Source: a virus (Duplodnaviria; Caudoviricetes). Taken from it: a stretch of DNA of 64,000 nt. A model generated the notes under the pieces. The model was not told the DNA's origin. It worked only from the letters and a program-made list of their open reading frames with translations, and made no database searches. The translations under genes were made by a program, and so were the position numbers. Shown here piece after piece: positions 3,101 through 60,717 of the stretch. How positions within the stretch are numbered: the first letter of the stretch is position 1; each line of letters starts with the position of its first letter. Location: positions 96,001 to 160,000 of the IMG/VR virus record IMGVR_UViG_3300031867_004305; one strand, 5' to 3'.

Positions 3101-6100
3101 ACTGGAATAATGAAGATGGTCTAAAGGCAATGCCTACTACTAAATCTGATGGTACATATAATACAACAGAAAAAGGCATCACAGTAGAATACACCAATCC
3201 ACTTAATCCAGCTTATAGCTTTACTAGTATTTGTGAAGATGGTGAAGTAGGTGTCGCAATACAAGGTACTTCTTCACAAGAGTATAAAAGAAAGAATTAT
3301 AAAATCAAATTATCCATTTTCTTACAAGACGGCAAGTACCATGTAAAATCTCCTGCTAAGGCCGCGAATAAGGATAATTATTATGTTGAAGAATACGATG
3401 GAGAAGGCAAACGCATTTATAATACTCTAAAATCTGAATATACAAAAACAGGTTATAAACTAAGCGAGACTTCTTTACCAACCTTTACTTTTTGCATCAA
3501 GGCCGACGTAGCTTCTTCTGAAAGTGCTAACAATGTTCTAATGGTAAGAATATATGATGATTTAGTACGCACTATTGCAGGACTTACTCCTCCCCAGGAA
3601 GAGAATAGCAGTATACGTCAAGGTGTAGAAGGCTATCCAATGATAGTATGGTATTTGAATAAGAAGACTAATGAATATACTTTCTTAGGCAAATATAACT
3701 TCAATAACGATAAAGGAACAAAAGAAGTCTATGGATTCCAAGATGGCGACGAAAGTTGGGAAGTCGGTAATAACGAACGCCCTCTTTGCTTCTTTGAAGA
3801 AGGAGATGGCTCAGAGTGGAATGAATGGCGCAGAGCTTTTGAAACACGTTATCCTGATGATGATAGTAGTATGACAAAAGAGGAAGACCCATACACTGAT
3901 GAACAAATAGCGGATCGTCTTGCTGGTTTGCGTGAAATGGTACATTGGGTTAGTAGTAGCGTAGATTGGACTGATGAAAATAAAGAAGATGTGGTATTTA
4001 CACAGTCTATTATAAATGCAGTTACACCAGAAGATACTGCTTTAGCTAATACTTTAGGAACTACTCCTGAAATTGAAGCTTATAAGAGAGAGTTCCAGAA
4101 TTATTTCCATTTGAACTTTATGGTGTTCTTCTTTGTTTATACTGAACTTTTCCTAATGGTAGATAACCGTGCGAAGAACATGTTTATGACTCGTTATAAG
4201 GTAACACCAGATCGTCCTTATAGCGGTACAGCTGTTACTTTACACTCTTCAGTCAATGAAACCGCCGAATATACTGGTTGGTTTAGTTTACCATATGATA
4301 TGGATACTGGTTTAGGTACAGATAACGTAGGCCGCTATAAGTTTGATTACCATTATGAATCAGGAGATTATCAACCTGATGGTTCAGTAGTGTTCAATGG
4401 CCAAAAGTCTAAATTATGGGTAACATTTAGAAAAGTTTTCCCAAGTAAAATAAGTGAAACTTTTAGGTCATTCTTTAGTAATATATCTGCACAAATTATT
4501 GATAATATGTATGAAAACCATCAAGGCGTATGGTCCGAAACCATTGTCAATGAAGATATGGAAGGAAAGTATATTGATTGGATTACTTACGACGAAAATG
4601 GTACAGCCGTTTCACGTGATACACGTGCTTTACCCATGTTGCTAGGCTTGAAAGTACAACAGCGTAAAGCCTGGTTATTCAATAGATTCCTCTACTTTAT
4701 TAGCAAAGAGGCACCAGATGCTAACGACTCTATTTCATTAGGTGTAAGAAAAGCAGAATTAAGTATTCCTGTTTCTGTTTATGCTGATTCTTATGTTACA
4801 TTCAAAGTCGGTGCACAAGATCCCGCACCAACTAGAATACGTGTAGGCATAGGAGAAACAAAAACTATTGTACGTGATACAAGTAATTCTTCTGGTACCG
4901 CGGGCGACCGCGTTGAGTCTAGTATGATTCCTGCTTCACGTATAAAGTCTATTGGAAATCTAGCTACTTTACAATTGAATAATGCTGATTTCTCTAAAGC
5001 GATTAGATTGCAATCATTACAAATCGGTAGTGCTAATCCTTCATTAGAAAACACTCGTTTAGACACTATTAACTTAACTGGTAATAGATTATTACGTAAC
5101 TTTGATTTACGTAATTGTTCTAATTATTCTGCAGATTTAAGCTTGCAGACTTGCCTGAGTCTAGAAAAAGCTTATTTAAGTGGTACTAAAATCAAGAAAG
5201 TTATGCTACCAAATGGCGGCGTCCTTCGTACAATTCAGTATCCTGAAACTATCACTGAAATCAAGATCGAAAATCAGCCATATCTAACTAACTTAATTAT
5301 TGGCTCTGATTTGCCGGCGGATGAAATCACAGAGGAAGATGCTCCATTTGTAAATGAGTTTGATATAGCTAATAATGATTACTCTAACATTACTTCAATC
5401 GTGCTAGACAATATCGGTGAAAGTATCAATGTGCCCAATATCGTAGTTCAGAGTGAAAACTTAGCCAGTTGTTCTTTAAATGCACTAGTATTTAGAATGA
5501 CTAGTTCTGCGTTCAAGACCTTCTTTGATAAGTTAGTTGATGTTGACGCAACAGTAACTAATTGTACTTTGTATCTAGAAGATGATTTATCAACTGTTGG
5601 TATGACAGTTAATGATATTACTGATAAGTTCGATATTAAAATCTTTGACAAAACTGGTGCAGAATACTTCAACGTGCGTTTCTATGACTTTGAAGGTAAT
5701 TGGTTAGCTACTCGTAGCGTAGCTAGTGGAACTCAAGTTCTAACTAATGATATTGATAATTACTTCACTCCTGAAGTAGAGTACGCTCATAATAATATCA
5801 CAGTTGATGATTTAGCTAATTATGAGACTATTCAAGGGTTTGGTGGATGGAATGTAAATCTACAAAATGTTACAACTGACTTAGAAGCACGTCCAGTAGA
5901 AGTAACTAAATACCGTATGGCTTATCATTATTTACAAGATTATACAACTCGTGCAGTTCAATATTTATATTTCGCAGAAAACGCAAGCATTACACGTATT
6001 GCTCCACCAGTGTTTATCTATGAATATAATCAGTATAATGCTTCTCGTTGGACCGCAGATAGTAACGAACCAGAGAATTATCCAGAAGAAGATGAGCGTA

Positions 6101-39685: not shown

Positions 39686-41586
39686 AAAAACTAATTACAG
39701 CAATTTTACTCCTCTTCTTCATTCCCCACATTCTTCTCGCAGAAGAAATTACTTCTATCCAAGACATTCTTCCATCAGAAGAAACTTTGTCTATTGAGGA
39801 TACCGAAGTAATCATATCAGCGGAAGAAGAATTAACTCCAGAAGAATACACATTCAATCTTGAGCCGGAAGTTGAATTTATTGCTTCTAATGAAACAGAA
39901 GAAGAAGAAACAACCGAAGAAGAAACAACCGAAGGAGAAGAGGAAGAAGAAGAAACAACCGATGAAGAAACAGTAGTCTTTAAAGGAGAAGTTGAACTAA
40001 CCGAAACACTCGGTATAGTAGATATTTCTCAAACCGTAAGCGTTTATAACTACTTCTACGACCGTGTAGCCAAGAAGTATTCAGTTCCTATGCAGACTGA
40101 AGTAAAACAACTAGGGCTTGACGCATACGTGCGTGTGCACCTAAATGCTTATCGCACGGTCAAGGCAACAGACGAAGAAGAAGAAATAGACTGGGATTTT
40201 CTTGAATGTGGCGTTTTAGACGCAGACGGAAATCTTCTTGAAGAAGGAACTCCCGACTATGTACTTATTGGTGATACAGTATACTACACCAAAATACTAC
40301 CAAAGGGATATACTTTTTACGTAGCTTATTACGGACGTTTTAATGACTATCAGCATTTAGCAACTAGTTCTCGCGTTAGCACTCGTCCTAGTGCCGACGC
40401 AGTTCAAAGTCAAAATTTTTATCCTGACTTTAGTAGCGACGACCCTTGGAATAACATAAATATTCAAGAAAAAGAAAAAGACGAAGTAGAACAAGTAGCT
40501 TCTTTGACTTTTGAAGTCATAGAAGGCGAAGATTACGGAGAACTTGAAGCGACAGTAGATGAAGAACAACTAAAAAATTATGCGATGCCAGGCGATAATA
40601 TAGAGATGGAAGTCCAATTAGATGTAACTGGCGAAGAAGGCTATATTTATGAAGTATTTCATAATATCAAAGCAATAACTTCTATGTCAGAACTAACCGA
40701 TTCTATCATAGAAAATCTAAAAGTTTGGTTATCTGTAGACAATGAAGAAAGAAATGAAATATATAATTCTGAAATACCTGAAGAAAAACAGTCATTAGGC
40801 CAATATATCAAAGGCCAAATACTAAATCTATGGTATTCTTTTACACTCGCACCCGAATTAGATAATGATTTTGAAAGTGAACAACTCACTATCAAAACAG
40901 AATACGAATACGCAATCGCGGCGACCCCTACACCTTCACCTACACCGACGCCAACTCCATCTCCAACCCCAACACCTACTCCATCGCCATCTCCTACACC
41001 TACACCAAGTCCTACTCCTACACCAACACCTAGCCCTACTCCCACTCCAACTCCCAGTCCTACCCCAACAATAACACCTTCTCCTAGTCCAACTCCAACA
41101 CCAACTCCAACGCCTACACCCACACCTACCCCAACTCCAACACCAACACCTACTCCTAAACCTACACATACGCACAAACCAACTTCAACACCAAAACCGA
41201 CTCGTACTCCTAAACCTACAGAGGAAGTAGTTATAATAGTAACTCCTACACCCACACCTACGCCCACTCCTACTTCTTCTCCTACTCCCACTCCTATTCC
41301 TACTCCAACCCCAACACCCACTCCAAAACCAACGATGTCACCACGCGAGAAGGAACGTATTAGAAATTACATTATCAAAAATCGCGATACTGACCCAAGA
41401 CTAAGCCAATACAAAGACATGACTGTAGAAGAATTAGAAGAGTTAATTGACCTTCTAGATTATGAAACTCCTTTGTATGGCGAGTTACTCAAAACAGGAG
41501 ACGAAATCCCTATTTATCCATTTATTTTTGCGGGTGCGGGTATATTAATTCTTTTATTTGCGATTTTCCGCAAACGTATTATTTGA
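39682..41586 (+). CDS. Secreted acidic surface protein with Pro-Thr repeats and sortase-type C-terminus
   Basis: Signal peptide; (PT/PS)n tract; LKTGDE, then a hydrophobic helix and RKR tail. Confidence 0.7.
40921..41330 (+). repeat. Pro-Thr/Pro-Ser coding repeat
   Basis: Degenerate ACNCCN repeats. Confidence 0.9.
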
Positions 41587-41611
41587 CTTTACATAAAAAT
41601 TCTGCTATAAT
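41583..41611 (+). promoter_or_regulatory. SigA-type promoter
   Basis: TTGACT-N17-TATAAT with TG extension. Confidence 0.8.
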
Positions 41612-41678
41612 TATATTGTAAGGTTGAGAAAGGGCTACACTTCCTCCCTAGTCATAATGACTTAAAGAAGTGTTTTAT

Positions 41679-42512: not shown

Positions 42513-42661
42513 CGATCCCTAGCTCAGTAGGTCTAGAGCAGCGGCCTTCACGAAGTACAATCAAGTAGATGGTCTGAAATTACTCAGGCGGGTGACAGGT
42601 TCAAATCCTTCCTTCGTGACCAATAAGCCGTGTGTCCTGGGTTCGAGTCCCAGGGGATCGA
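42513..42661 (+). tRNA. tRNA-Ile(UAU) interrupted in the anticodon by a 74-nt tRNA-like insert (42549-42622)
   Basis: Exons 42513-42548 and 42623-42661 give a complete cloverleaf with GCGGC-CTT|ATAA-GCCGT. No encoded CCA. Confidence 0.85.
42549..42622 (+). ncRNA. tRNA-mimic insert 1
   Basis: CACGAAG/CTTCGTG acceptor stem plus ACCA; AGG-TTCAAAT-CCT T-arm; central hairpin with a 6-nt loop. Confidence 0.75.
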
Positions 42662-42741: not shown

Positions 42742-43380
42742 ATGCCATACATTTATAAAATTGTAAATGATATTAATAATAAAATATATGTTGGGAAAAC
42801 ATTGAAAACAGTTCAAGAAAGATGGAAGCAGCATTTATATGATTATGATAAAAAAAGAAATGAAAAACGACCTTTATATGATGCTATGTTAAAATATGGT
42901 CCTAATCATTTTCATATAGAAGAATTAGAAAATGTTTTAGACGCGACTTTATTAAATGAACGCGAAAAATATTGGATTGAATTTTTACATTCTTTTCAAG
43001 ATGGGTATAACGCCACATGCGGCGGAGATGGGACCCCATATGCTGATTATGCATTAATCTATGAATTATATACAATTCATAACTTAACATTTGAAAAAAT
43101 TCAAAATATAACTAATTATGATATGCGTACTATACGTGCTGCTATTATGAGTTGTGGTATTTCAAAAGAAAATATTGAAAAAATCCGCTTACAAAGATTA
43201 AGAAAGCCTGTAATGCAGTTAGATATAAAAACAGAAGAAATTTTAAAAATTTTTCCTAGTTGTACTGCTGCACAGCGTGAAGTTAGTAATAATCCAAATG
43301 ATTATTCTGGTACTCATATTTCTGCTGTATGCCGTGGCAAAAGACGTACTGCCTATGGTTATAAATGGAAATACTTGTAA
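42742..43380 (+). CDS. GIY-YIG homing endonuclease with NUMOD1-type C-terminus
   Basis: YIYKI.N..N.K.YVGKT, GYN, ISAVCRGKR.TAYGYKW. Confidence 0.9.
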   Translation: MPYIYKIVNDINNKIYVGKTLKTVQERWKQHLYDYDKKRNEKRPLYDAMLKYGPNHFHIEELENVLDATLLNEREKYWIEFLHSFQDGYNATCGGDGTPYADYALIYELYTIHNLTFEKIQNITNYDMRTIRAAIMSCGISKENIEKIRLQRLRKPVMQLDIKTEEILKIFPSCTAAQREVSNNPNDYSGTHISAVCRGKRRTAYGYKWKYL

Positions 43381-45100: not shown

Positions 45101-45281
45101 TTGATTTGGGATGATAATTTATATGACGCGATGAAAGATGTATATGACTATGCCTATCGCGTTTTTTTTGGAAAAGCACCCATAGATGTTACTTATCGTG
45201 TGAATTATGGCAGTAGAGGAGCAGAACAAAAAGTTTTACAGTATATTTGGAACACTTATATTGAACCGAAGGGAGAAAATA

Positions 45282-45863
45282 ATGAGTAATATTTATTTCA
45301 GTAGTGACTTGCATTTTTGTCATAACCGCGGTTTTCTTTATGAGCCACGCGGTTTTTCATCTATCGAAGAACATGACTCTGCCATTATTGAAAACTGGAA
45401 TAAAATAGTTAAAAATAATGATGTTGTTTTTCTACTTGGTGATTTAATGCTTAATGATAATGTAAATGGTATTAAAAAATTAAATAAATTAAATGGCACG
45501 ATATATTACATACGAGGAAACCATTGCTCAAATGCGCGTTGCGTCCTATACGAAGAACAAACTAATATGATTCCGCTATGTAATAATTTCTTTAGTAGTT
45601 GGGCTTCATTAGAAAAAATCAAAGGATATAATTTGTATTTATCTCATTATCCAACTATAATTGGCTCATTAAAAGATATGACGCCATTAAACAAGAGATT
45701 AATAAATCTTCATGGTCATCTTCATAGTAAAAATAAATTCTATCAAGATATTCCTTTTATGTATAATGTAGCACTTGACGCACATAATAACGCGCCCGTA
45801 TCATTTGATGAAATTATTTCAGATATTGAAGCAAAAGCAAATGAATGTATTGCTATGCTATAA
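45282..45863 (+). CDS. Calcineurin-like metallophosphoesterase
   Basis: SDLH, LGD, RGNH, SH.P, HGHLH. Confidence 0.9.
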   Translation: MSNIYFSSDLHFCHNRGFLYEPRGFSSIEEHDSAIIENWNKIVKNNDVVFLLGDLMLNDNVNGIKKLNKLNGTIYYIRGNHCSNARCVLYEEQTNMIPLCNNFFSSWASLEKIKGYNLYLSHYPTIIGSLKDMTPLNKRLINLHGHLHSKNKFYQDIPFMYNVALDAHNNAPVSFDEIISDIEAKANECIAML

Positions 45864-46171
45864 GGAGATAATATGATTTACGAGGGGCCTTATGTACTTA
45901 TTTTAATTATCCTATTAGGGATAGGCGCTAGTTTATTATTGACTGGTTTTATGAATAGTTAATCAAGGAGGAAATATGGGATTACCATTTATTTTTGGGA
46001 AAAAGAAAACAGAAGAAACCCCTGATATTACTAATGAAGAATTAGAGAAAATATTAAAATCTGCTCCTGTAATATCTTCAAATACAATAAAACCAGAAGT
46101 TATAAGTTTAACTACTTCACGTGAATTAAAGTATTTAAAGAAACGAATATGGAAATTCTATCATAAATAAT

Positions 46172-46200
46172 TTGACTTTTACTAAAAAATCTGCTATAAT
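46172..46200 (+). promoter_or_regulatory. SigA-type promoter
   Basis: TTGACT-N17-TATAAT with TG extension. Confidence 0.8.
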
Positions 46201-46264
46201 AATATTGTAAGAAAGAAACGAGCCCTAGTCCAGGGCTGACCAAATGAAAAGGAGAAAATAAATT

Positions 46265-47800
46265 ATGAATCGTCTTTACAATGCTATGGCTTCTCAGAAC
46301 ACCTACAAGACTACCGAGAATGGTGCTATCGCACGCACCACGACCAGCTCTAAGCTATATGACCTCTTCTCTTTCGGCGCGGCTTACCGTCAGCGTACCG
46401 AGAGTGATTGCGTGCTACTATTTAAGGAGGCATATAAGGAAAGTCCTATGTATGCCCTAAAGTGCCTGTTCTATATCCGCGATATTCGCGGCGGACAGGG
46501 TGAGCGTCGTTTCTTCCGCACTTGCCTGCATTGGCTTGCGGATTATGACCGCAATGCCGTACTACGCAATCTTGACCAGATTGCTGAGTATGGCCGCTGG
46601 GATGACCTATATGCCCTAGTGGGGACTTCTTGTGAACATGATGCTCTTTATGCTCTTGGCAAGCAGCTTGCCCTTGATTACAAGACCAAGGGTGCTATTT
46701 CCCTTGCCGGTAAGTGGGCAGCTTCAGAGAACGCTTCTTCTGCCAAGACTAAGCGTTATGGTCGTCTAACTGCTCATACTATGGGTCTAACTTCTCGTCA
46801 ATATCGCAAGGTGCTTTCTACCCTTCGTGAGCGTATTCGTGTTCTGGAGCGACTTATGTCCGCAAATCGTTGGAATGAGATTGAATTTGACAAGATTCCT
46901 TCTCGTGCTGGCCTAATCTACAAGAACGCTTTTGCACGCCGTGATATCATCAAGGCGAAGTATGAGTCTTTTGCAAAGGATAAGACTACCAAGGTTAACG
47001 CGGCAGCCCTCTATCCTTACGATGTCGTAGCTAAGGCAATTAAGCTGATGGGCTCTGACAGCTGGTATGGCCGTGGTAATCATGTTGCTCTTGACAATAC
47101 CGATCGTCTAATGATTAACAAGTATTGGGAGAATCTTGTTGATTATCTGACTGGTGCTCCACTAAATGCGGTGGTAGTGGCTGATACAAGCGGAAGTATG
47201 TGTTCAGGTGCTAATAGTGTGGCTCCAATTGATGTTGCTGTTTCTTTGGCTCTATACGCGGCCGAACGTATGCGTGGTCCTTTTGCCAATCATTATATTT
47301 CTTTTAGCCGTAAGGCTCGTTTAATCGAGACTACTGGCGTGGATTTTTGTGATAAGGTAGATAGGATTGTAAGGACGAATCTATGTGAAAATACGAATTT
47401 AGCTTCCGTATTTGACCTTATCCTAAGTACTGCTTGTCACTATAATCTATCTCAAAAGGATATGCCAGAAAGCATTATTATTGTAACAGATATGGAAGTA
47501 GATTCCGCACAGGGTTATTCTTCTTGGGGACGAGCACCTGAATATGGACACGGCGGTAAGGGAATTCAAACCTTTATGGATAAGATGCGTAGTCGTTGGA
47601 CTGACGCAGGATATAAAATGCCAAAAATTGTATTTTGGAACGTAAACGCACGAAATAATACAATTTTGGATGATGGCCCTGATGTTACTAATGTCAGCGG
47701 TTGCTCACCGGTTCTATTTGAATCTATCCTATCTGGAAAAAGTTCTTATGATCTTATGATGGATAAGCTAAATAGTAATCGTTATAAGCCAATTCATTAA
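46265..47800 (+). CDS. DUF2828-type Ro/TROVE-like helical domain plus vWA domain protein
   Basis: TENGA, RDIRGG.GER, YGRWDDL, KW, LYPYD, DTSGSM (MIDAS), TDM, VFWN, VSG.S. Confidence 0.8.
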   Translation: MNRLYNAMASQNTYKTTENGAIARTTTSSKLYDLFSFGAAYRQRTESDCVLLFKEAYKESPMYALKCLFYIRDIRGGQGERRFFRTCLHWLADYDRNAVLRNLDQIAEYGRWDDLYALVGTSCEHDALYALGKQLALDYKTKGAISLAGKWAASENASSAKTKRYGRLTAHTMGLTSRQYRKVLSTLRERIRVLERLMSANRWNEIEFDKIPSRAGLIYKNAFARRDIIKAKYESFAKDKTTKVNAAALYPYDVVAKAIKLMGSDSWYGRGNHVALDNTDRLMINKYWENLVDYLTGAPLNAVVVADTSGSMCSGANSVAPIDVAVSLALYAAERMRGPFANHYISFSRKARLIETTGVDFCDKVDRIVRTNLCENTNLASVFDLILSTACHYNLSQKDMPESIIIVTDMEVDSAQGYSSWGRAPEYGHGGKGIQTFMDKMRSRWTDAGYKMPKIVFWNVNARNNTILDDGPDVTNVSGCSPVLFESILSGKSSYDLMMDKLNSNRYKPIH

Positions 47801-47840: not shown

Positions 47841-48584
47841 ATGGGAAGGCCCGCTAAAGATTTAACAAATCAAAGATTTCAACGATTATTAGTAATTAAG
47901 CGTGATGGTTCTACAGCTGATGGTCATGCTAAATGGTTATGTTTATGTAACTGCGGTAATTATATAAGTGTATCATCCAATAGTTTAAAACGCGGTGATA
48001 CTAAATCTTGTGGATGCTTAAATAAAGATGTAGCAAGAGAAAAAGGTAGACAATCTTATAAAGATCTCACTAATAAACGTTTTAATAAACTAATTGCTAA
48101 AGAATATTTAGGAAGTAATAATAAAGGAAGTGGTTTATGGAGATGCGAATGTGATTGTGGAAATAATAATTTTATTACAACGTCGCACCATTTAATTAGC
48201 AGCAATACGCAAAGCTGTGGTTGCTTAAAATCAAAAGGAGAAGCAAATATAAAACAACTACTTATAAATAATAATATTAATTTTATTTCACAATATTACT
48301 TTAAAGATTTATATTATGAAAGTAATATACCTGTTCGATTTGATTTTTATTTACCCGATTATAACCGATTAATTGAATTTGATGGTATTCAACATTATAC
48401 TTCTGGCGGTGGATGGAACACCGCTGAATTATTTAAACGCAATAAAAAACACGACGAAATTAGAAACCAATATGCCCTTTCCCACAACATTCCTCTCGTT
48501 CGCATACCATATTGGGAACGTGATAATATTACTCTTGAAATGTTATTTAGTGATGAATATTTAGTGAAAGAAGAAGATGAATGA
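47841..48584 (+). CDS. Homing-type endonuclease (Cys-rich repeats plus PD-(D/E)XK/Vsr-like domain)
   Basis: Two W.C.C.CG...SCGC repeats; FDFY, IEFDGIQH, LVRIPYW. Confidence 0.75.
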   Translation: MGRPAKDLTNQRFQRLLVIKRDGSTADGHAKWLCLCNCGNYISVSSNSLKRGDTKSCGCLNKDVAREKGRQSYKDLTNKRFNKLIAKEYLGSNNKGSGLWRCECDCGNNNFITTSHHLISSNTQSCGCLKSKGEANIKQLLINNNINFISQYYFKDLYYESNIPVRFDFYLPDYNRLIEFDGIQHYTSGGGWNTAELFKRNKKHDEIRNQYALSHNIPLVRIPYWERDNITLEMLFSDEYLVKEEDE

Positions 48585-50302: not shown

Positions 50303-50305
50303 TAT

Positions 50306-50334
50306 TTGACTTTTATTAAAAATTCTGATATAAT
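50306..50334 (+). promoter_or_regulatory. SigA-type promoter
   Basis: TTGACT-N17-TATAAT with TG extension. Confidence 0.8.
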
Positions 50335-50370
50335 TATTATACAAGGTGAGGGAAAGAGCCCTCACAACGA

Positions 50371-51344: not shown

Positions 51345-51415
51345 GCTGCGTTAGTCCAGTGGTAAGACACGAGGCTTTCAATCTCGGCAGAGGGGTTCAA
51401 TTCCCCTACGCAGTA
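51345..51415 (+). tRNA. tRNA-Glu(UUC)
   Basis: CGAGG-CTTTCAA-TCTCG; no encoded CCA. Confidence 0.85.
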
Positions 51416-51469
51416 CTCCTCCTTTTGGAGATATTTCCTAACCTTACAAGAAAAAGTCAAGTTGAAAAC

Positions 51470-52543: not shown

Positions 52544-52747
52544 ATGATTAAAATTATCAAGCATGGTCATGCACAATATAAAGCCACTTGTGAATATTGC
52601 GAATGTGTCTTCTCATTTGAAGATGAAGATATTCAAAATAGTGGATGCCAATGGGACTGGTATGAATGGGTTACTTGTCCAGAATGCCATCGAAAAAATG
52701 AATTATCCAGTCGTAGTGCTTTTAAATTCCACCAATTTCAGGATTGA
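52544..52747 (+). CDS. Small Zn-ribbon protein
   Basis: CEYC...CPEC; own promoter at 52494-52522. Confidence 0.6.
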   Translation: MIKIIKHGHAQYKATCEYCECVFSFEDEDIQNSGCQWDWYEWVTCPECHRKNELSSRSAFKFHQFQD

Positions 52748-52914
52748 CTTTCTATAAAAATTATAGTATAATTATTATAGTAAGAGGAAAGGAGCAAATC
52801 ATTTATGGATTATCTTGATGATTTTGTTTGCGAATATCAATCTGATGAATTTGAAGAAGATTCGTTCTGGTTTTGGATTGATGAATATGATTTAGGAATG
52901 GGGATAGAAAATTA

Positions 52915-53259: not shown

Positions 53260-53586
53260 AAATTGTGATATAATATTTATAGAAACAAGGAAAGGATGAT
53301 AATTGTGCGTAAGACTTCTCGTACTGTGTTTTCTTCTTCTTGGACTCGCCGCGAGCAGGCTGAAAAGCTTGATGAGTGGCAGAATTAGCCGGTATAAGCA
53401 GACAAATTGCGGCCAATAGAATGCCGGTACCGTAAATGTTCTTCTAACGCCTCTCGAAGAAGCGCACCACTAGAAGACTTATTACCTAGGTAGTTGCGGC
53501 GAACAACGATAAAAATCGCTAGTTGCCCAGATACTTACTTGAAGGGTTTCTGCCGCGTTAATCTTGGTATCGGATTGCGGTTGTAT

Positions 53587-53721
53587 CCACGCGTGGTGCA
53601 AATGGCGAGACACAGCGGACTTACGTAGGCCCAGTGGCTTGTTGGAGAGCAACACTCCTTCCTACGACCAAAATCCGCGACGCAAGATACATTGCTGGTT
53701 CAAATCCAGTCGCGTGGACCA
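53587..53721 (+). tRNA. tRNA-Leu(UAA) interrupted in the anticodon by a 47-nt minihelix insert (53624-53670)
   Basis: Exons give GCGGA-CTTA|AAA-TCCGC, long variable region, CCACGCG/CGCGTGG acceptor stem, ACCA. Confidence 0.85.
53624..53670 (+). ncRNA. tRNA-mimic insert 2 (acceptor stem plus T-arm)
   Basis: CGTAGG/CCTACG plus ACCA; GGAG-AGCAACA-CTCC hairpin with a 7-nt loop. Confidence 0.7.
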
Positions 53722-53724
53722 TAT

Positions 53725-53801
53725 GTTCCATTACCCCAATTGGTAGAGGGAATCGGCTCAAACCCGATGTAGTTTCAGTTCGAATCTGAAATGGAACACC
53801 A
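53725..53801 (+). tRNA. tRNA-Leu(CAA) with short variable loop
   Basis: ATCGG-CTCAAAC-CCGAT; 5-nt variable loop; ACCA. Confidence 0.85.
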
Positions 53802-53879
53802 GAAAATTTTATTTCGAGTTCAAATTGAAATAATTTGAACTTCGAATAGCCACTTTCTAGTAGAAGGAGGTGGTAAGTA

Positions 53880-54836
53880 ATGGAAACTTACACAAATATT
53901 TGGTTAGATATTTCAGAAGAACAATGGAGAAAAATTATTTCTACTAGTCTAACTCGTGCAGAGGTCGCACGCAAAGTTAATCGTTGTCCCAATTCAAGTT
54001 TTAATGAGCGTTTAAAAAAATATTGTGATGAACATAATATCTCTATTGAACATTTTACAATTAATGAAAATGGCAATAAAGAGAAATATCAACTTGAAGA
54101 AATTCTAGTAGAAAACTCTCCTGCTTCGAGAAAAACATTAAGAGACTATTTAGCAAAATATAACATTCTAGAATATAAATGTGCTATTTGCGGGAATGTT
54201 GGAGAATGGAATGGAGTTTCTTTAACTTTACAAATAGACCATATTAATGGAATAAATAATGATAATAGAAAAGAAAATCTTCGTTGGTTATGTCCAAATT
54301 GTCATTCTCAAACTGACACGTTTACTGGGAAAAATAAAACTAAAAAAGAAGTTGTTAATTTCACAGTAGAAGAAGCGATTAAAGCATTAAGACAAACTGA
54401 AAATGTAAATCAAGCAACTAAATTAATCGGTTGTGCGCAAGGTGGAGCAAATTGGATTAGAGTAAATGATATTAAGAAAGAATATGGAATTGTTCAATCT
54501 GGAGATTTAAAAAAAGAAGAAAAATATAAGTTTGAAGAAAATCATATTAATGTAAAACCAATGAACTTTATTAAATTATGTAAAAAGTGCGGTCGTCCAT
54601 TATCGACAAAAGATGCTGAGTATTGTCAAACTTGTATTCACGAATTTCAACGAAAATGTGAATGGCCTTCCCGCGAAGAACTTAAAAAATTAATCCGTTC
54701 CACACCTTTTTTACAAATAGGTAAAAAATATAATGTAAGTGATAACGCTGTAAGAAAATGGTGTTTAAATTACGGTTTACCATCTAAAAAAAAGGAAATC
54801 AAAGCAATTTCAGATGAAGAGTGGGCTACCATTTGA
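53880..54836 (+). CDS. HNH endonuclease
   Basis: C..CG...LQIDHING...DNR.ENLR.LCPNCH. Confidence 0.9.
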   Translation: METYTNIWLDISEEQWRKIISTSLTRAEVARKVNRCPNSSFNERLKKYCDEHNISIEHFTINENGNKEKYQLEEILVENSPASRKTLRDYLAKYNILEYKCAICGNVGEWNGVSLTLQIDHINGINNDNRKENLRWLCPNCHSQTDTFTGKNKTKKEVVNFTVEEAIKALRQTENVNQATKLIGCAQGGANWIRVNDIKKEYGIVQSGDLKKEEKYKFEENHINVKPMNFIKLCKKCGRPLSTKDAEYCQTCIHEFQRKCEWPSREELKKLIRSTPFLQIGKKYNVSDNAVRKWCLNYGLPSKKKEIKAISDEEWATI

Positions 54837-54890
54837 CTTTCTTCTAAAATTATAGTATAATAATTATAACAAAAGGAAAGGATGATATAA

Positions 54891-55109
54891 ATGGAAAATA
54901 TCATTCATGAAGAAGCCGAAAAAATTAAACAGAATATCATTAATGAATTTGGAAAGAATAATATTTTAGATTTACACGTAGAATTAAATGAAGATTGGCG
55001 TGGAGACTATCTCGCTTGGTGGATTATTTTAAAAAATAATCGCAGAATAGAATGTATTAGATACTATAACAGCGATGGAACAATCAAAAAGAATTTGACT
55101 TTCTTCTAA
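54891..55109 (+). CDS. Hypothetical protein between near-identical promoter copies
   Basis: Promoters at 54833-54861 and 55095-55123. Confidence 0.55.
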   Translation: MENIIHEEAEKIKQNIINEFGKNNILDLHVELNEDWRGDYLAWWIILKNNRRIECIRYYNSDGTIKKNLTFF

Positions 55110-55155
55110 AATTATAATATAATAATTATAGTAAAGGGAAAGGAATTAAGATGTA

Positions 55156-55649: not shown

Positions 55650-56235
55650 ATACCCTATTTAATAAAATGGTTGAACCAAGTGAAGAAGAGCTAACCACTC
55701 TGCTTGGACTATCCGAAAAACAGCCCCAAACTTGATGGGATACTTTCAAGCCAAGGCCGCGAAATCAGTAATGATTAGCGATATGGAGAAACTCCTAATG
55801 TTAAGGGTAGGTGCTTGGTTATCCGCTAACAAAAACTTGGCTCCTCGCGGCGTCGTAATAGAAGGTGGGCGTTAAAAGCGTGACCTGAATCCAAGTTAGG
55901 CGTAGGATGGCTGCCACCGCAAACCTTGGAAATGCCAACAAGACGCTTGGTGTCGTTGAAACCTAGAAATAGGATATAAGCGAGGTTCACAGAAAAAGTA
56001 GCCCAAAACGACAATGATTCTAATAGATATTTGTAAATATTACTTGGAATTATTGTGCTGAACGGTTCGGGTGAAATTTGAGAGTAAGCAATCTCTCCGT
56101 TGCTCACCGAAAGGTAGGGTGAAGAAGTCCGGAATTGCTACCCGTGGCTCAGCCTTCATCTTCAACGTGGTTGAATATGTTAGAAGGATAATACAAGTAC
56201 GACGAAGGTCGCAACGGTTTTATTAAATAGGGTAT
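55650..56235 (+). ncRNA. ROOL-like large RNA (about 586 nt)
   Basis: Terminal stem ATACCCTATTTAATAAAA/TTTTATTAAATAGGGTAT. Size and ordered motifs (AATCCAAGTTAGG, AAGTAGC, GCTGAACGGTTCGGGTGAAA, GCTCAGCC, GTTGAATA) match ROOL as I recall it. tRNA-cluster context. Confidence 0.7.
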
Positions 56236-56336
56236 TTGCCCTAAACTTTAAGGTAGCATTGGAGTAATTAACCAATGAGATGAAGATGCTCCTACATCAG
56301 CTTAAAGTTTAAAATATAATCATAGGAGTGATTAAT

Positions 56337-56897
56337 ATGCCAAAGAAAATTGATTTAACAGGAAAAATTTTTGGAATCGTACAGGTAGACTCACCAGCAC
56401 CAAGTCAATCTGGTAAAACATATTGGAATTGTCATTGTACTATTTGTAATACTAAAAAAGTAATTCAAGGCTGTGCTTTAAAAAATGGTTCTATTAAAAC
56501 TTGCGGTTGTGGTTGTTCTTTTCATAAACAAAACACTTCAAAAATTTGCGAAATTTGCGGAAAAGAATTTATTCCAATAAAATTTGGCGGTGCTAGAAAA
56601 TATTGTTATGAATGTTCTCCGCAAGAAGGCTCAGAAACAGATAAACGCACAGTTATAAGACGAGCTTTGAAAAAGATGCTAGTTGATTATAAAGGTGGAA
56701 AATGTGAGCTATGTGGATATAATAAATGTTTACGAGCATTAGAATTTCATCATTTAAATCCATCTGAAAAAGATTTTGGAATTTCTGGATGTATAACTAA
56801 AAATGTAGAAGAATTAAAAAATGAAGTTAATAAATGTATTTTAGTTTGTTCTAATTGTCATGCGGAAATCCATGAAGAGCTAGACGAGGCCCGTTAG
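56337..56897 (+). CDS. HNH endonuclease
   Basis: KGGKCE.CGY....ALEFHH.NP.EK...CILVCSNCH.E.H. Confidence 0.85.
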   Translation: MPKKIDLTGKIFGIVQVDSPAPSQSGKTYWNCHCTICNTKKVIQGCALKNGSIKTCGCGCSFHKQNTSKICEICGKEFIPIKFGGARKYCYECSPQEGSETDKRTVIRRALKKMLVDYKGGKCELCGYNKCLRALEFHHLNPSEKDFGISGCITKNVEELKNEVNKCILVCSNCHAEIHEELDEAR

Positions 56898-56964
56898 TCC
56901 AGTTGGCAGAACGATAGACTGTTAATCTATGTCAGCGCTGGTTCGAGTCCAGCACGGGCCGCCA
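56888..56964 (+). tRNA. tRNA-Asn(GUU)
   Basis: ATAGA-CTGTTAA-TCTAT; CCA; overlaps the HNH stop codon. Confidence 0.9.
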
Positions 56965-58400: not shown

Positions 58401-58949
58401 ATGCCTAAAAGAATGACACAAGAAGATTTTAATGCTAGAATAAAAGATTACACTAATGATTCTATAATAGTTATTGGAGAATATAAAAATAAAAAAACTC
58501 CTGTTTTAATACAATGTAAAAAATGTAATTACAAATGGTATTATTCTCCAGCATCATTAATGCCTAGTTCTACAAAAAATTATCATTTTAAAGGTTGCCC
58601 TAATTGTAAAAAAGTAACTCTTTTTTGCTTAGAATGTGGAAAAGAATTTACTCGGTTAAAAACTGAAATAAATGACAATAATTTTTGTTGTAAAACTTGT
58701 GCAAATCGTTATAAAAATAAACAAAAAATCAATAAAATTGATAGTTTAGCATACAGACGCAATGCTTTTGAATATTATCCGCACAAATGCGATATTTGTG
58801 GTTGGAATAAAGATGAAAGAGTATTAGAAGTTCATCATTTAGACGAAGATAGAACTAATAATCATATTGATAATTTACGAATTTTGTGTCCAAATTGTCA
58901 TAAATTTTTAACATTGCATCTTTATTCTTATGAAGAAATGAAACAGTAA
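58401..58949 (+). CDS. HNH endonuclease
   Basis: CDICG....LEVHH.D.DR.NN...NL.ILCPNCH. Confidence 0.9.
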   Translation: MPKRMTQEDFNARIKDYTNDSIIVIGEYKNKKTPVLIQCKKCNYKWYYSPASLMPSSTKNYHFKGCPNCKKVTLFCLECGKEFTRLKTEINDNNFCCKTCANRYKNKQKINKIDSLAYRRNAFEYYPHKCDICGWNKDERVLEVHHLDEDRTNNHIDNLRILCPNCHKFLTLHLYSYEEMKQ

Positions 58950-60642: not shown

Positions 60643-60717
60643 GGGTGTGTAACCAAGAGGTAAGGTAACGGACTTTTAATCCGTGATTCGTGGGTTCGAT
60701 CCCCGCCACACCCACCA
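60643..60717 (+). tRNA. tRNA-Lys(UUU)
   Basis: ACGGA-CTTTTAA-TCCGT; CCA. Confidence 0.9.

Follow-up and report, generated by a model that had tools for sequence, protein, structure and literature searches.

The tRNA-Leu(UAA) gene of a phage with a complete 181-kb record is interrupted within its anticodon by a 47-nt insert that is built like the top half of a tRNA and ends in ACCA. As far as sequence can tell, this tRNA-like shape suggests that the insert is excised by the ordinary tRNA-trimming enzymes and that the tRNA is rejoined by an RNA ligase. The tRNA introns known from bacteria and their viruses are of the self-splicing kind only; the splicing of tRNAs by proteins is characteristic of archaea and eukaryotes. 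Positions refer to the window, by which we denote the whole 64,000-nt stretch of DNA that was analysed (bases 96001-160000 of the record), unless they carry the name of another contig or genome.

A tRNA-shaped insert splits the tRNA-Leu(UAA) gene

With introns allowed, ARAGORN recognizes 53587-53721 as a 135-nt type-II tRNA with a 47-nt insert in the anticodon loop; without introns, the program overlooks the gene. The split gene has a 7-bp acceptor stem, a D arm, the anticodon stem GCGGA/TCCGC, a long variable arm, a T arm and an encoded ACCA. Once the exons are joined without 53624-53670, the anticodon arm reads GCGGA-CTTAAAA-TCCGC with a 7-nt loop, and the tRNA is Leu-UAA. An earlier inspection of the letters alone, referred to here as the sequence-only reading, had claimed that excision of these bases restores GCGGA-CTTA/AAA-TCCGC (a slash within a loop marks the junction), and the uninterrupted orthologues in relatives bear this out by reading CTTAAAA (L009:15194-15280, L013:10897-10982 and L021:14621-14708). 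It had also described the junction as ambiguous by one A, rightly so, as CTTA/AAA and CTT/AAAA are both possible. We favour CTTA/AAA because the rule of a 7-position stem followed by ACCA holds in all five insert families described below. The Leu-CAA call of ARAGORN, which cuts two bases leftward, is an artefact of the ambiguity of one A and the CCA.

The insert has the geometry of a tRNA top half, in which 7 and 5 stacked positions form a 12-position minihelix (Table 1). Its acceptor stem, its T-arm-like hairpin with a 7-nt loop and its ACCA had been proposed before and are confirmed from the sequence, the stem now extending to seven positions. The T-loop differs from the canonical TTCRANN. 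Each stem of the window's copy holds one mismatch; the copies in L044, L008 and L033 close these by U-A or G·U, the U·U of the T-like stem being replaced by U-A in L044 and by G·U in L008 and L033. When the 135-nt RNA is folded at minimum energy, the acceptor and anticodon stems of the tRNA and the terminal stem of the insert all form, and the junctions sit in a predicted 4 x 7 internal loop; the fold energies are unremarkable by themselves (z about -1 to -2). The uninterrupted tRNA-Leu(CAA) gene that follows after 3 nt probably shares a precursor with the split gene.

Table 1. Coordinates of the split tRNA genes, their inserts and neighbouring features
Feature	Location	Strand	Details
tRNA-Leu(UAA) 5' exon	53587..53623	+	acceptor 5' strand, D arm, anticodon stem 5' strand, loop CTTA; tRNA positions 1-35
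47-nt tRNA-top-half insert, candidate intron	53624..53670	+	from stem pairing, relatives' alignment and fold
Leu insert, acceptor-like stem	53624-53630 with 53660-53666	+	7 positions: 6 Watson-Crick pairs and C·U at position 7
Leu insert, linker	53631-53642	+	12 nt; from sequence anatomy
Leu insert, T-like stem	53643-53647 with 53655-53659	+	5 positions: four pairs and U·U
Leu insert, 7-nt loop	53648-53654	+	
Leu insert, 3' ACCA	53667-53670	+	directly after acceptor-like 3' strand
tRNA-Leu(UAA) 3' exon	53671..53721	+	loop AAA, anticodon stem 3' strand, long variable arm, T arm, acceptor 3' strand, encoded ACCA
tRNA-Leu(CAA), uninterrupted	53725..53801	+	
tRNA-Ile(UAU) companion, split	42513..42661	+	74-nt tRNA-like insert 42549-42622 between U34 and A35, CTT/ATAA
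Ile-UAU inserts	this window, L007, L005		CTT/ATAA, 74-77 nt
Glu-UUC split genes	L022:15642-15761 (= L004:4523-4642), L009:12535-12654, L012 around 3365-3480		35/36, CTTT/CAA, insert 44 nt
Asn-GUU split genes	L009:17871-17993, L013:12402-12525		34/35, CTG/TTAA, insert 49-50 nt
Lys-UUU split genes	L025 c6464-6607, L031 c2226-2406		34/35, CTT/TTAA, inserts 70 and 105 nt
ATP-dependent RNA ligase, 216 aa	49440..50090	+	Rnl2-type nucleotidyltransferase domain; PF09414 E 1.2e-15; PHROG 548 RNA ligase
T4 Rnl1-type ligases	G001:C1:66751-67335; G002:C1:131229-131813; G004:C1:43520-44104		
Metallophosphoesterase	45207..45863	+	PHROG 547 phosphoesterase, E 6e-47
Ro/TROVE-like RNA-binding protein gene	46265-47800		in tRNA island, near ligase gene
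Homing-endonuclease genes (one GIY-YIG, four HNH-type)	42742-43380, 47841-48584, 53880-54836, 56328-56897, 58401-58949		between tRNA genes
Full-length ROOL RNA	55652-56230	+	307.6 bits against gathering score 99.1
Dispersed repeat copies	around 41579-41622, 46167-46214, 50304-50358, 52745-52795, 54834-54888, 55096-55145		
CUA-anticodon tRNAs	L029:9929-10016; L033:5292-5380; L035 c2031-2120; also L039, L042, L046, L048		88-90 nt

The insert is conserved and its stems covary

Relatives were gathered through neighbouring proteins and DNA patterns, and they form a clade of rumen-type viral and metagenome contigs. A pattern scan located the Leu insert on about 20 contigs of viral or metagenome origin, which between them hold eight distinct versions. 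In the alignment of these eight inserts 91.9% of cells are paired, and 8 of the 17 pairs change on both sides; none of 500 shuffles reached the observed pairing, and slid controls dropped to 34-53% paired. Four of the five pairs of the T-like stem change on both sides (GGAG/CTCC, GAAG/CTTC, CGGG/CCCG and CAAG/CTTG). About 15 of the 47 bases were dictated by the DNA search pattern, which makes the invariance of most acceptor-like pairs uninformative; one pair of that stem does change on both sides, from A-U to G-C. A rival minimum-energy hairpin of the Leu insert was rejected, being broken in the second subfamily and leaving a G-C to A-U change unexplained. Judged from this alignment, the Leu insert is a conserved structured unit, beyond what chance would produce.

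The sequence-only reading had taken the occurrence of inserts in two tRNAs as an argument for function rather than accident. This view is strengthened by the compensatory changes that maintain both stems and by the design being present in five tRNA species, where that reading knew of two. Homologues with compensatory changes, whose absence would by that reading have refuted it, have been found, with both stems covarying across the eight Leu versions.

Uninterrupted tRNA-Leu(UAA) genes occupy the equivalent place in L009, L011, L013 and L021. A covariance model of the Leu insert, run against 493 kb of collected loci, returned no further diverged or free-standing copies, its single weak match of note being the empty site in L013. 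With blastn against a phage collection, nothing similar to 53300-54000 was seen in cultured phages. The single pattern match in reference bacterial genomes (L052, a Bryobacteraceae MAG) and the metagenome-scan matches L050 and L051 have another spacing and no interrupted tRNA, and were discarded as false positives. Where other relatives have a long-arm tRNA-Leu, two contigs (L008:7237-7360 and L011:10115-10191) carry a UAA anticodon on a type-I body with a short variable loop, measuring 77 nt after insert removal.

One insert design interrupts five tRNA species

The top-half or tRNA-like design interrupts Leu-UAA, Ile-UAU, Glu-UUC, Asn-GUU and Lys-UUU tRNAs in the phage clade, always between positions 34 and 35 or between 35 and 36. 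In all 18 distinct inserts of the five families, the first base of the insert is the first base of a 7-position acceptor-like stem, and a T-like stem of 5 positions, whose 7-nt loop has C at position 3 and A at position 4, abuts the acceptor 3' strand. A terminal ACCA closes 17 of the 18; the L008 Leu insert ends in ACAA, so the CCA is not absolutely invariant. Only the middle of the insert varies, from 9 to 70 nt. As read from these sequences, the insert boundaries coincide with tRNA processing sites in all 18 cases.

Empty sites support the placement of these boundaries. The Ile empty site L009:1048-1124 equals the exons of the interrupted L007:2699-2849 save one base, and the Glu empty site L013:9638-9713 agrees at 97% with L022:15642-15761 once the exons of the latter are joined; the boundaries are fixed because empty-site alleles match joined exons. 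In view of the empty-site alleles, the gene order and the rule of seven positions plus ACCA, we rejected the anticodons that ARAGORN gives for split genes (Leu-CAA, Arg-UCU, Val-CAC, Val-UAC, Thr-GGU and Phe-AAA) and adopted the five named above in their place. Two loose scans, one for a stem plus NCCA inside any 5-bp stem and one for a top half plus NCCA genome-wide, each gave about as many matches as shuffled sequence, and their sole addition to the ARAGORN cases was the Glu copy in L012.

The likeness that had been claimed between the 3' ends of the window's two inserts holds in part. The 17-mer quoted for the first insert lies at 42606-42622, in the Ile insert; the likeness is literal in this window and extends to the shared architecture, but it is not kept in relatives, where the ends have diverged (CTATC-CTTCATG-ACCA in the L005 Ile insert, CCCGT-GCCTACG-ACAA in the L008 Leu insert). 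Because of this loss, the Leu and Ile inserts can be said to share a design, with no demonstrable sequence ancestry. In the window, the tRNA-Glu gene at the equivalent place (51345-51416) is a different gene and uninterrupted, and the Asn (56888-56964) and Lys (60643-60717) tRNA genes are intact.

The split tRNAs bear the marks of functional genes

ARAGORN finds 19 tRNAs in the window by default, the two split genes in addition with introns allowed (42513-42661 and 53587-53721), and no further tRNA in the rest of this phage genome. In four complete genomes (G000, G001, G002 and G004), each interrupted gene is the only one for its anticodon. The codons concerned are in heavy use: UUA makes up 43% of the phage's Leu codons and is the commonest of them, and AUA makes up 28% of Ile codons. 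The exons of insert-bearing alleles are 63-76% identical, and every arm (acceptor, D, variable and T) is still paired through compensatory changes. Because the arms stay paired, the genes are the sole ones for their anticodons and UUA and AUA are heavily used, these data argue against a pseudogene and for removal of the insert from the RNA.

Between alleles that differ to this degree in their exons, the insert is 94-100% identical, a value inflated by the roughly 15 of 47 bases that the search pattern fixed. Identity reaches 100% for the inserts of the window and L035, whose exons agree at 71%, and for those of L029 and L045, with exons at 68%; the presence or absence of the insert varies among close relatives. 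Because it is more conserved than the tRNA hosting it, the insert behaves like a mobile element. It is a conserved, structured element and, on these comparisons, probably a mobile one. At least five homing-endonuclease genes lie between the tRNA genes of the window; in relatives, the GIY-YIG and HNH homologues sit at different tRNAs, adjoining both interrupted and intact ones. A link between these genes and the insert was rejected, as interrupted and uninterrupted tRNAs are both flanked and no specific association emerges.

Such mobility could also mean that the insert is purely selfish, or that its payload is the released CCA-ended mini-tRNA, which could for instance lure host enzymes or toxins whose targets are tRNA ends or anticodons. 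In that case the halves of tRNA-Leu would never be rejoined and the tRNA gene would be a processing scaffold. Besides the identity contrast and the variable presence, this explanation draws on an island that is rich in tRNA-like RNAs and has a Ro/TROVE-like RNA-binding protein, and on the homing-endonuclease genes that adjoin many of these tRNAs. We nevertheless consider it unlikely: even in very diverged alleles, the exons without the insert pair throughout the cloverleaf and close a perfect loop of 7 nt, a split gene is in every case the only one for a heavily used codon, a scaffold needs no intact D arm, variable arm or encoded CCA, and the identity figures overstate the conservation of the insert for the reason given.

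The tRNA island and its RNA ligase

In the window, tRNA genes, small RNAs, homing endonucleases and RNA-repair genes are gathered in an island of 23 kb. A full-length ROOL RNA lies there as well, 2 kb beyond the split tRNA-Leu on its 3' side. Copies of a dispersed repeat of about 50 nt are scattered over the tRNA islands of this phage and G001, as seen from many cross-matching blastn pieces, and its motif AAGGACTAC is also found 3' of several tRNAs in relatives. Contigs with the Leu insert also carry long CUA-anticodon tRNAs, candidate amber suppressors; the window's genome has none.

The ligase of the island scores 58.5 bits against PF09414 (cut-off 27) and weakly matches T4 Rnl2 1s68. It consists of the nucleotidyltransferase domain only, its 216 aa being the length of the N-terminal domain alone; T4 Rnl2 needs its C-terminal domain for nick sealing. 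By its domain content the protein is a candidate sealing enzyme, a part that a host ligase could take instead. A PF09414 ligase is encoded in all five complete genomes with inserts, none of which has RtcB. The family is not restricted to insert-bearing genomes, being present also in L010, L011 and L021, whose retrieved stretches hold no insert. Three of the five complete insert-bearing genomes encode a further ligase, of the T4 Rnl1 type, which this phage lacks. The ordinary role of such a phage RNA ligase is the repair of anticodon-nuclease damage (PMC7824862).

UUA and AUA are nearly absent from the ligase gene (0 of 13 and 1 of 17, respectively) and from the Ro-like gene (2 of 45 and 0 of 26). 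Together the two codons amount to 0.4 per 100 codons in the Ro/TROVE-like gene and 0.5 in the ligase, as against about 5.3 genome-wide. The idea that the ligase avoids codons needing split tRNAs was set aside as doubtful, since avoidance also occurs in L010 and L011 (no insert in the stretch retrieved) and in likely highly expressed structural genes; the L009 ligase uses GAA freely although Glu-UUC is split there. Avoidance of UUA and AUA in the ligase and Ro-like genes may reflect expression level or origin.

By its family, the metallophosphoesterase is a possible RNA end-healing enzyme, and its membership of the insert system is uncertain. This phage has no gene for the splicing endonuclease EndA (PF01974 absent from G000), for an RNase Z-like metallo-beta-lactamase or for a CCA-adding enzyme, and Rfam gave no match to a ribozyme, group I or intron family, even at E up to 10. 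Because these are missing, the cuts must come from host enzymes or unknown proteins.

Proposed route of removal

We propose that the 47-nt insert is a tRNA-shaped intron that would be removed by a 5' cut of RNase P, a cut after the CCA by an RNase Z/BN-like enzyme and sealing by a ligase; in our judgement the chance that this full route is correct is about even. RNase P and the tRNA 3'-end enzymes recognise the acceptor stem, the T arm and RCCA, also on minihelix substrates. The upstream product of RNase P ends in a 3'-OH and the downstream product of RNase Z-type enzymes begins with a 5'-phosphate; ATP-dependent RNA ligases join such ends without healing. The features of a bacterial RNase P substrate are present in the insert, namely a 7-position acceptor-like stem on a 5-position T stem with a 7-nt loop, and a 3' RCCA after the stem, which is ACCA in 17 of the 18 distinct inserts. 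We favour this route because the conserved parts of the insert are the recognition features of these enzymes and the expected ends are ligatable.

In this scheme the 135-nt pre-tRNA would be transcribed, and the cloverleaf and the 12-position acceptor/T-like minihelix of the insert would both fold. Host RNase P would take the insert for a tRNA 5' end and cut between A53623 and C53624, giving a 3'-OH on the 5' exon. An RNase Z/BN-type 3'-end endonuclease that tolerates the encoded CCA would cut after A53670, giving a 5'-phosphate on the 3' exon. The tRNA halves would be held together by the acceptor, D and anticodon stems until an ATP-dependent RNA ligase, that of the phage (49440-50090) or one of the host, seals the nick inside the anticodon. 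The products would be tRNA-Leu(UAA) and a free 47-nt mini-RNA ending in CCA. We infer every enzymatic step; the 3' cut is the weakest, as it depends on the RNase Z type of the host. CCA inhibits the RNase Z of many bacteria; for a cut after CCA, Thermotoga RNase Z and RNase BN of E. coli offer precedents.

The difficulty of a precise cut after CCA gives some room to a different route of removal, which we regard as improbable. Another endonuclease, of host or phage, could leave cyclic-phosphate and 5'-OH ends, to be healed by the phosphoesterase and a kinase and then sealed, or a trans-acting RNA of the island could be involved, for instance ROOL or the large structured RNA after tRNA-Met. The metallophosphoesterase and Ro-like genes near the ligase gene fit such a scheme, as does the position of ROOL downstream of the split Leu gene. 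However, the five insert families have only their tRNA shape in common, RtcB is absent, a non-systematic search turned up no kinase, and Rfam gave no ribozyme family match.

Far less probable is a degenerate remnant of a classical intron, of the group I or the archaeal bulge-helix-bulge type. The insert does share its tRNA, and nearly its site, with the cyanobacterial tRNA-Leu(UAA) group I intron at U34/A35. Group I introns have a conserved catalytic core (P3-P9), are usually longer than 200 nt and end in a terminal G. At 47 nt the insert falls far below such a core, it ends in A, and it matches no Rfam intron family; its junctions lie in the 4 x 7 internal loop rather than in two 3-nt bulges flanking a 4-bp helix, the search for a splicing endonuclease gene was negative, and the design also occurs in four other tRNAs. 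That the gene is a dead pseudogene or an assembly artefact is barely credible, for nothing speaks for it except that standard tRNA finders skip the gene, and it is contradicted by the occurrence of the interrupted gene on about 20 independent contigs from different samples and by compensatory evolution in exons and insert alike.

Discussion

Together with the route of removal by RNase P, a tRNA 3'-end endonuclease and a ligase, we tentatively consider, at somewhat less than an even chance, that these inserts are a distinct kind of intron of the bacterial world, defined by tRNA shape alone, spliced in a protein- or RNP-dependent manner, spreading between tRNA genes and sited in anticodons with a modified wobble base. 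The five tRNAs concerned (Leu-UAA, Ile-UAU, Glu-UUC, Lys-UUU and Asn-GUU) are ones that we take to have modified wobble bases. As part of this reading, the insert may keep a pool of precursors from anticodon nucleases, or may shield the gene from the homing endonucleases of the island.

If RNase P, a 3'-end endonuclease and a ligase do remove these inserts, phages would have built a splicing pathway from housekeeping tRNA-trimming enzymes, phage RNA ligases would gain a role beyond damage repair, and the 'enigmatic' introns of megaphages would be explained. The 44-50-nt forms would represent a minimal portable excision signal, usable for releasing RNAs from precursors. Split genes escape standard tRNA finders, so that the tRNA complements of phages are under-counted; in this phage the tRNAs reading AUA and the commonest Leu codon go unnoticed.

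Several known systems share single features with the insert. The group I intron of cyanobacterial and plastid tRNA-Leu(UAA) lies in the same tRNA, at a site within one base (U34/A35), but is a self-splicing ribozyme of more than 200 nt, whereas the insert has neither a core nor an Rfam match. Archaeal and eukaryal introns (bulge-helix-bulge; EndA with RtcB or Trl1) are likewise short introns of the anticodon loop that proteins remove before the halves are ligated. They differ in lying at 37/38 and in giving cyclic-phosphate and 5'-OH ends, whereas the inserts here lie at 34/35 or 35/36, with no bulge-helix-bulge motif, no EndA and expected 3'-OH and 5'-phosphate ends. In minihelix-type substrates of RNase P and RNase Z (MALAT1 mascRNA, mitochondrial tRNA punctuation), an acceptor stem, a T arm and a 3' NCCA suffice, and the flanking RNA is released with a 3'-OH and a 5'-phosphate; these cases only cut RNAs apart, while here the flanks would have to rejoin. 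Such rejoining has a likeness in the T4 tRNA restriction-repair system (PrrC, Pnkp, Rnl1) and in the RNA-repair sets of jumbo phages (PMC7824862), where a ligase seals a break in the anticodon loop; as in the jumbo-phage sets, ligase, phosphoesterase and Ro/TROVE-like genes stand among the tRNA genes. T4-type repair, however, answers damage by a host nuclease with cyclic-phosphate and 5'-OH ends, whereas the break proposed here would be programmed by the gene and need no healing.

The closest relatives of the insert in design are other phage tRNA introns. Devoto et al. 2019 described 'enigmatic' tRNA introns in Lak megaphages, one of which 'may encode a tRNA'; their sequences do not vary between cohorts, and some genomes lack them (PMC6784885). 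A 2026 survey stated that tRNA introns of jumbo phages 'could encode another tRNA' (PMC13037316). Neither paper proposes a mechanism of removal, and none was found elsewhere in the literature searched. The insert belongs to a barely described class, similar phage tRNA introns having been noted already without a mechanism. As in Lak, the inserts here interrupt phage anticodon loops, have a tRNA-like fold with the 3' junction at its 3' end, and occur in some close relatives and not in others, in near-identical copies. The Lak introns (Table S6 of PMC6784885) measure 79-114 nt, have a 5' hairpin and an A/T-rich linker before the tRNA-like part and lack a CCA, their 3' junction following the discriminator base of that part by our own reading of the same table. 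The phages also differ, those analysed here having genomes of about 180 kb, ordinary open reading frames and the standard code. In contrast to the Lak introns, the insert here is the tRNA mimic alone, running from the first acceptor base to the ACCA with no 5' hairpin or linker, and the Leu, Glu and Asn families retain no more than a top half of 44-50 nt.
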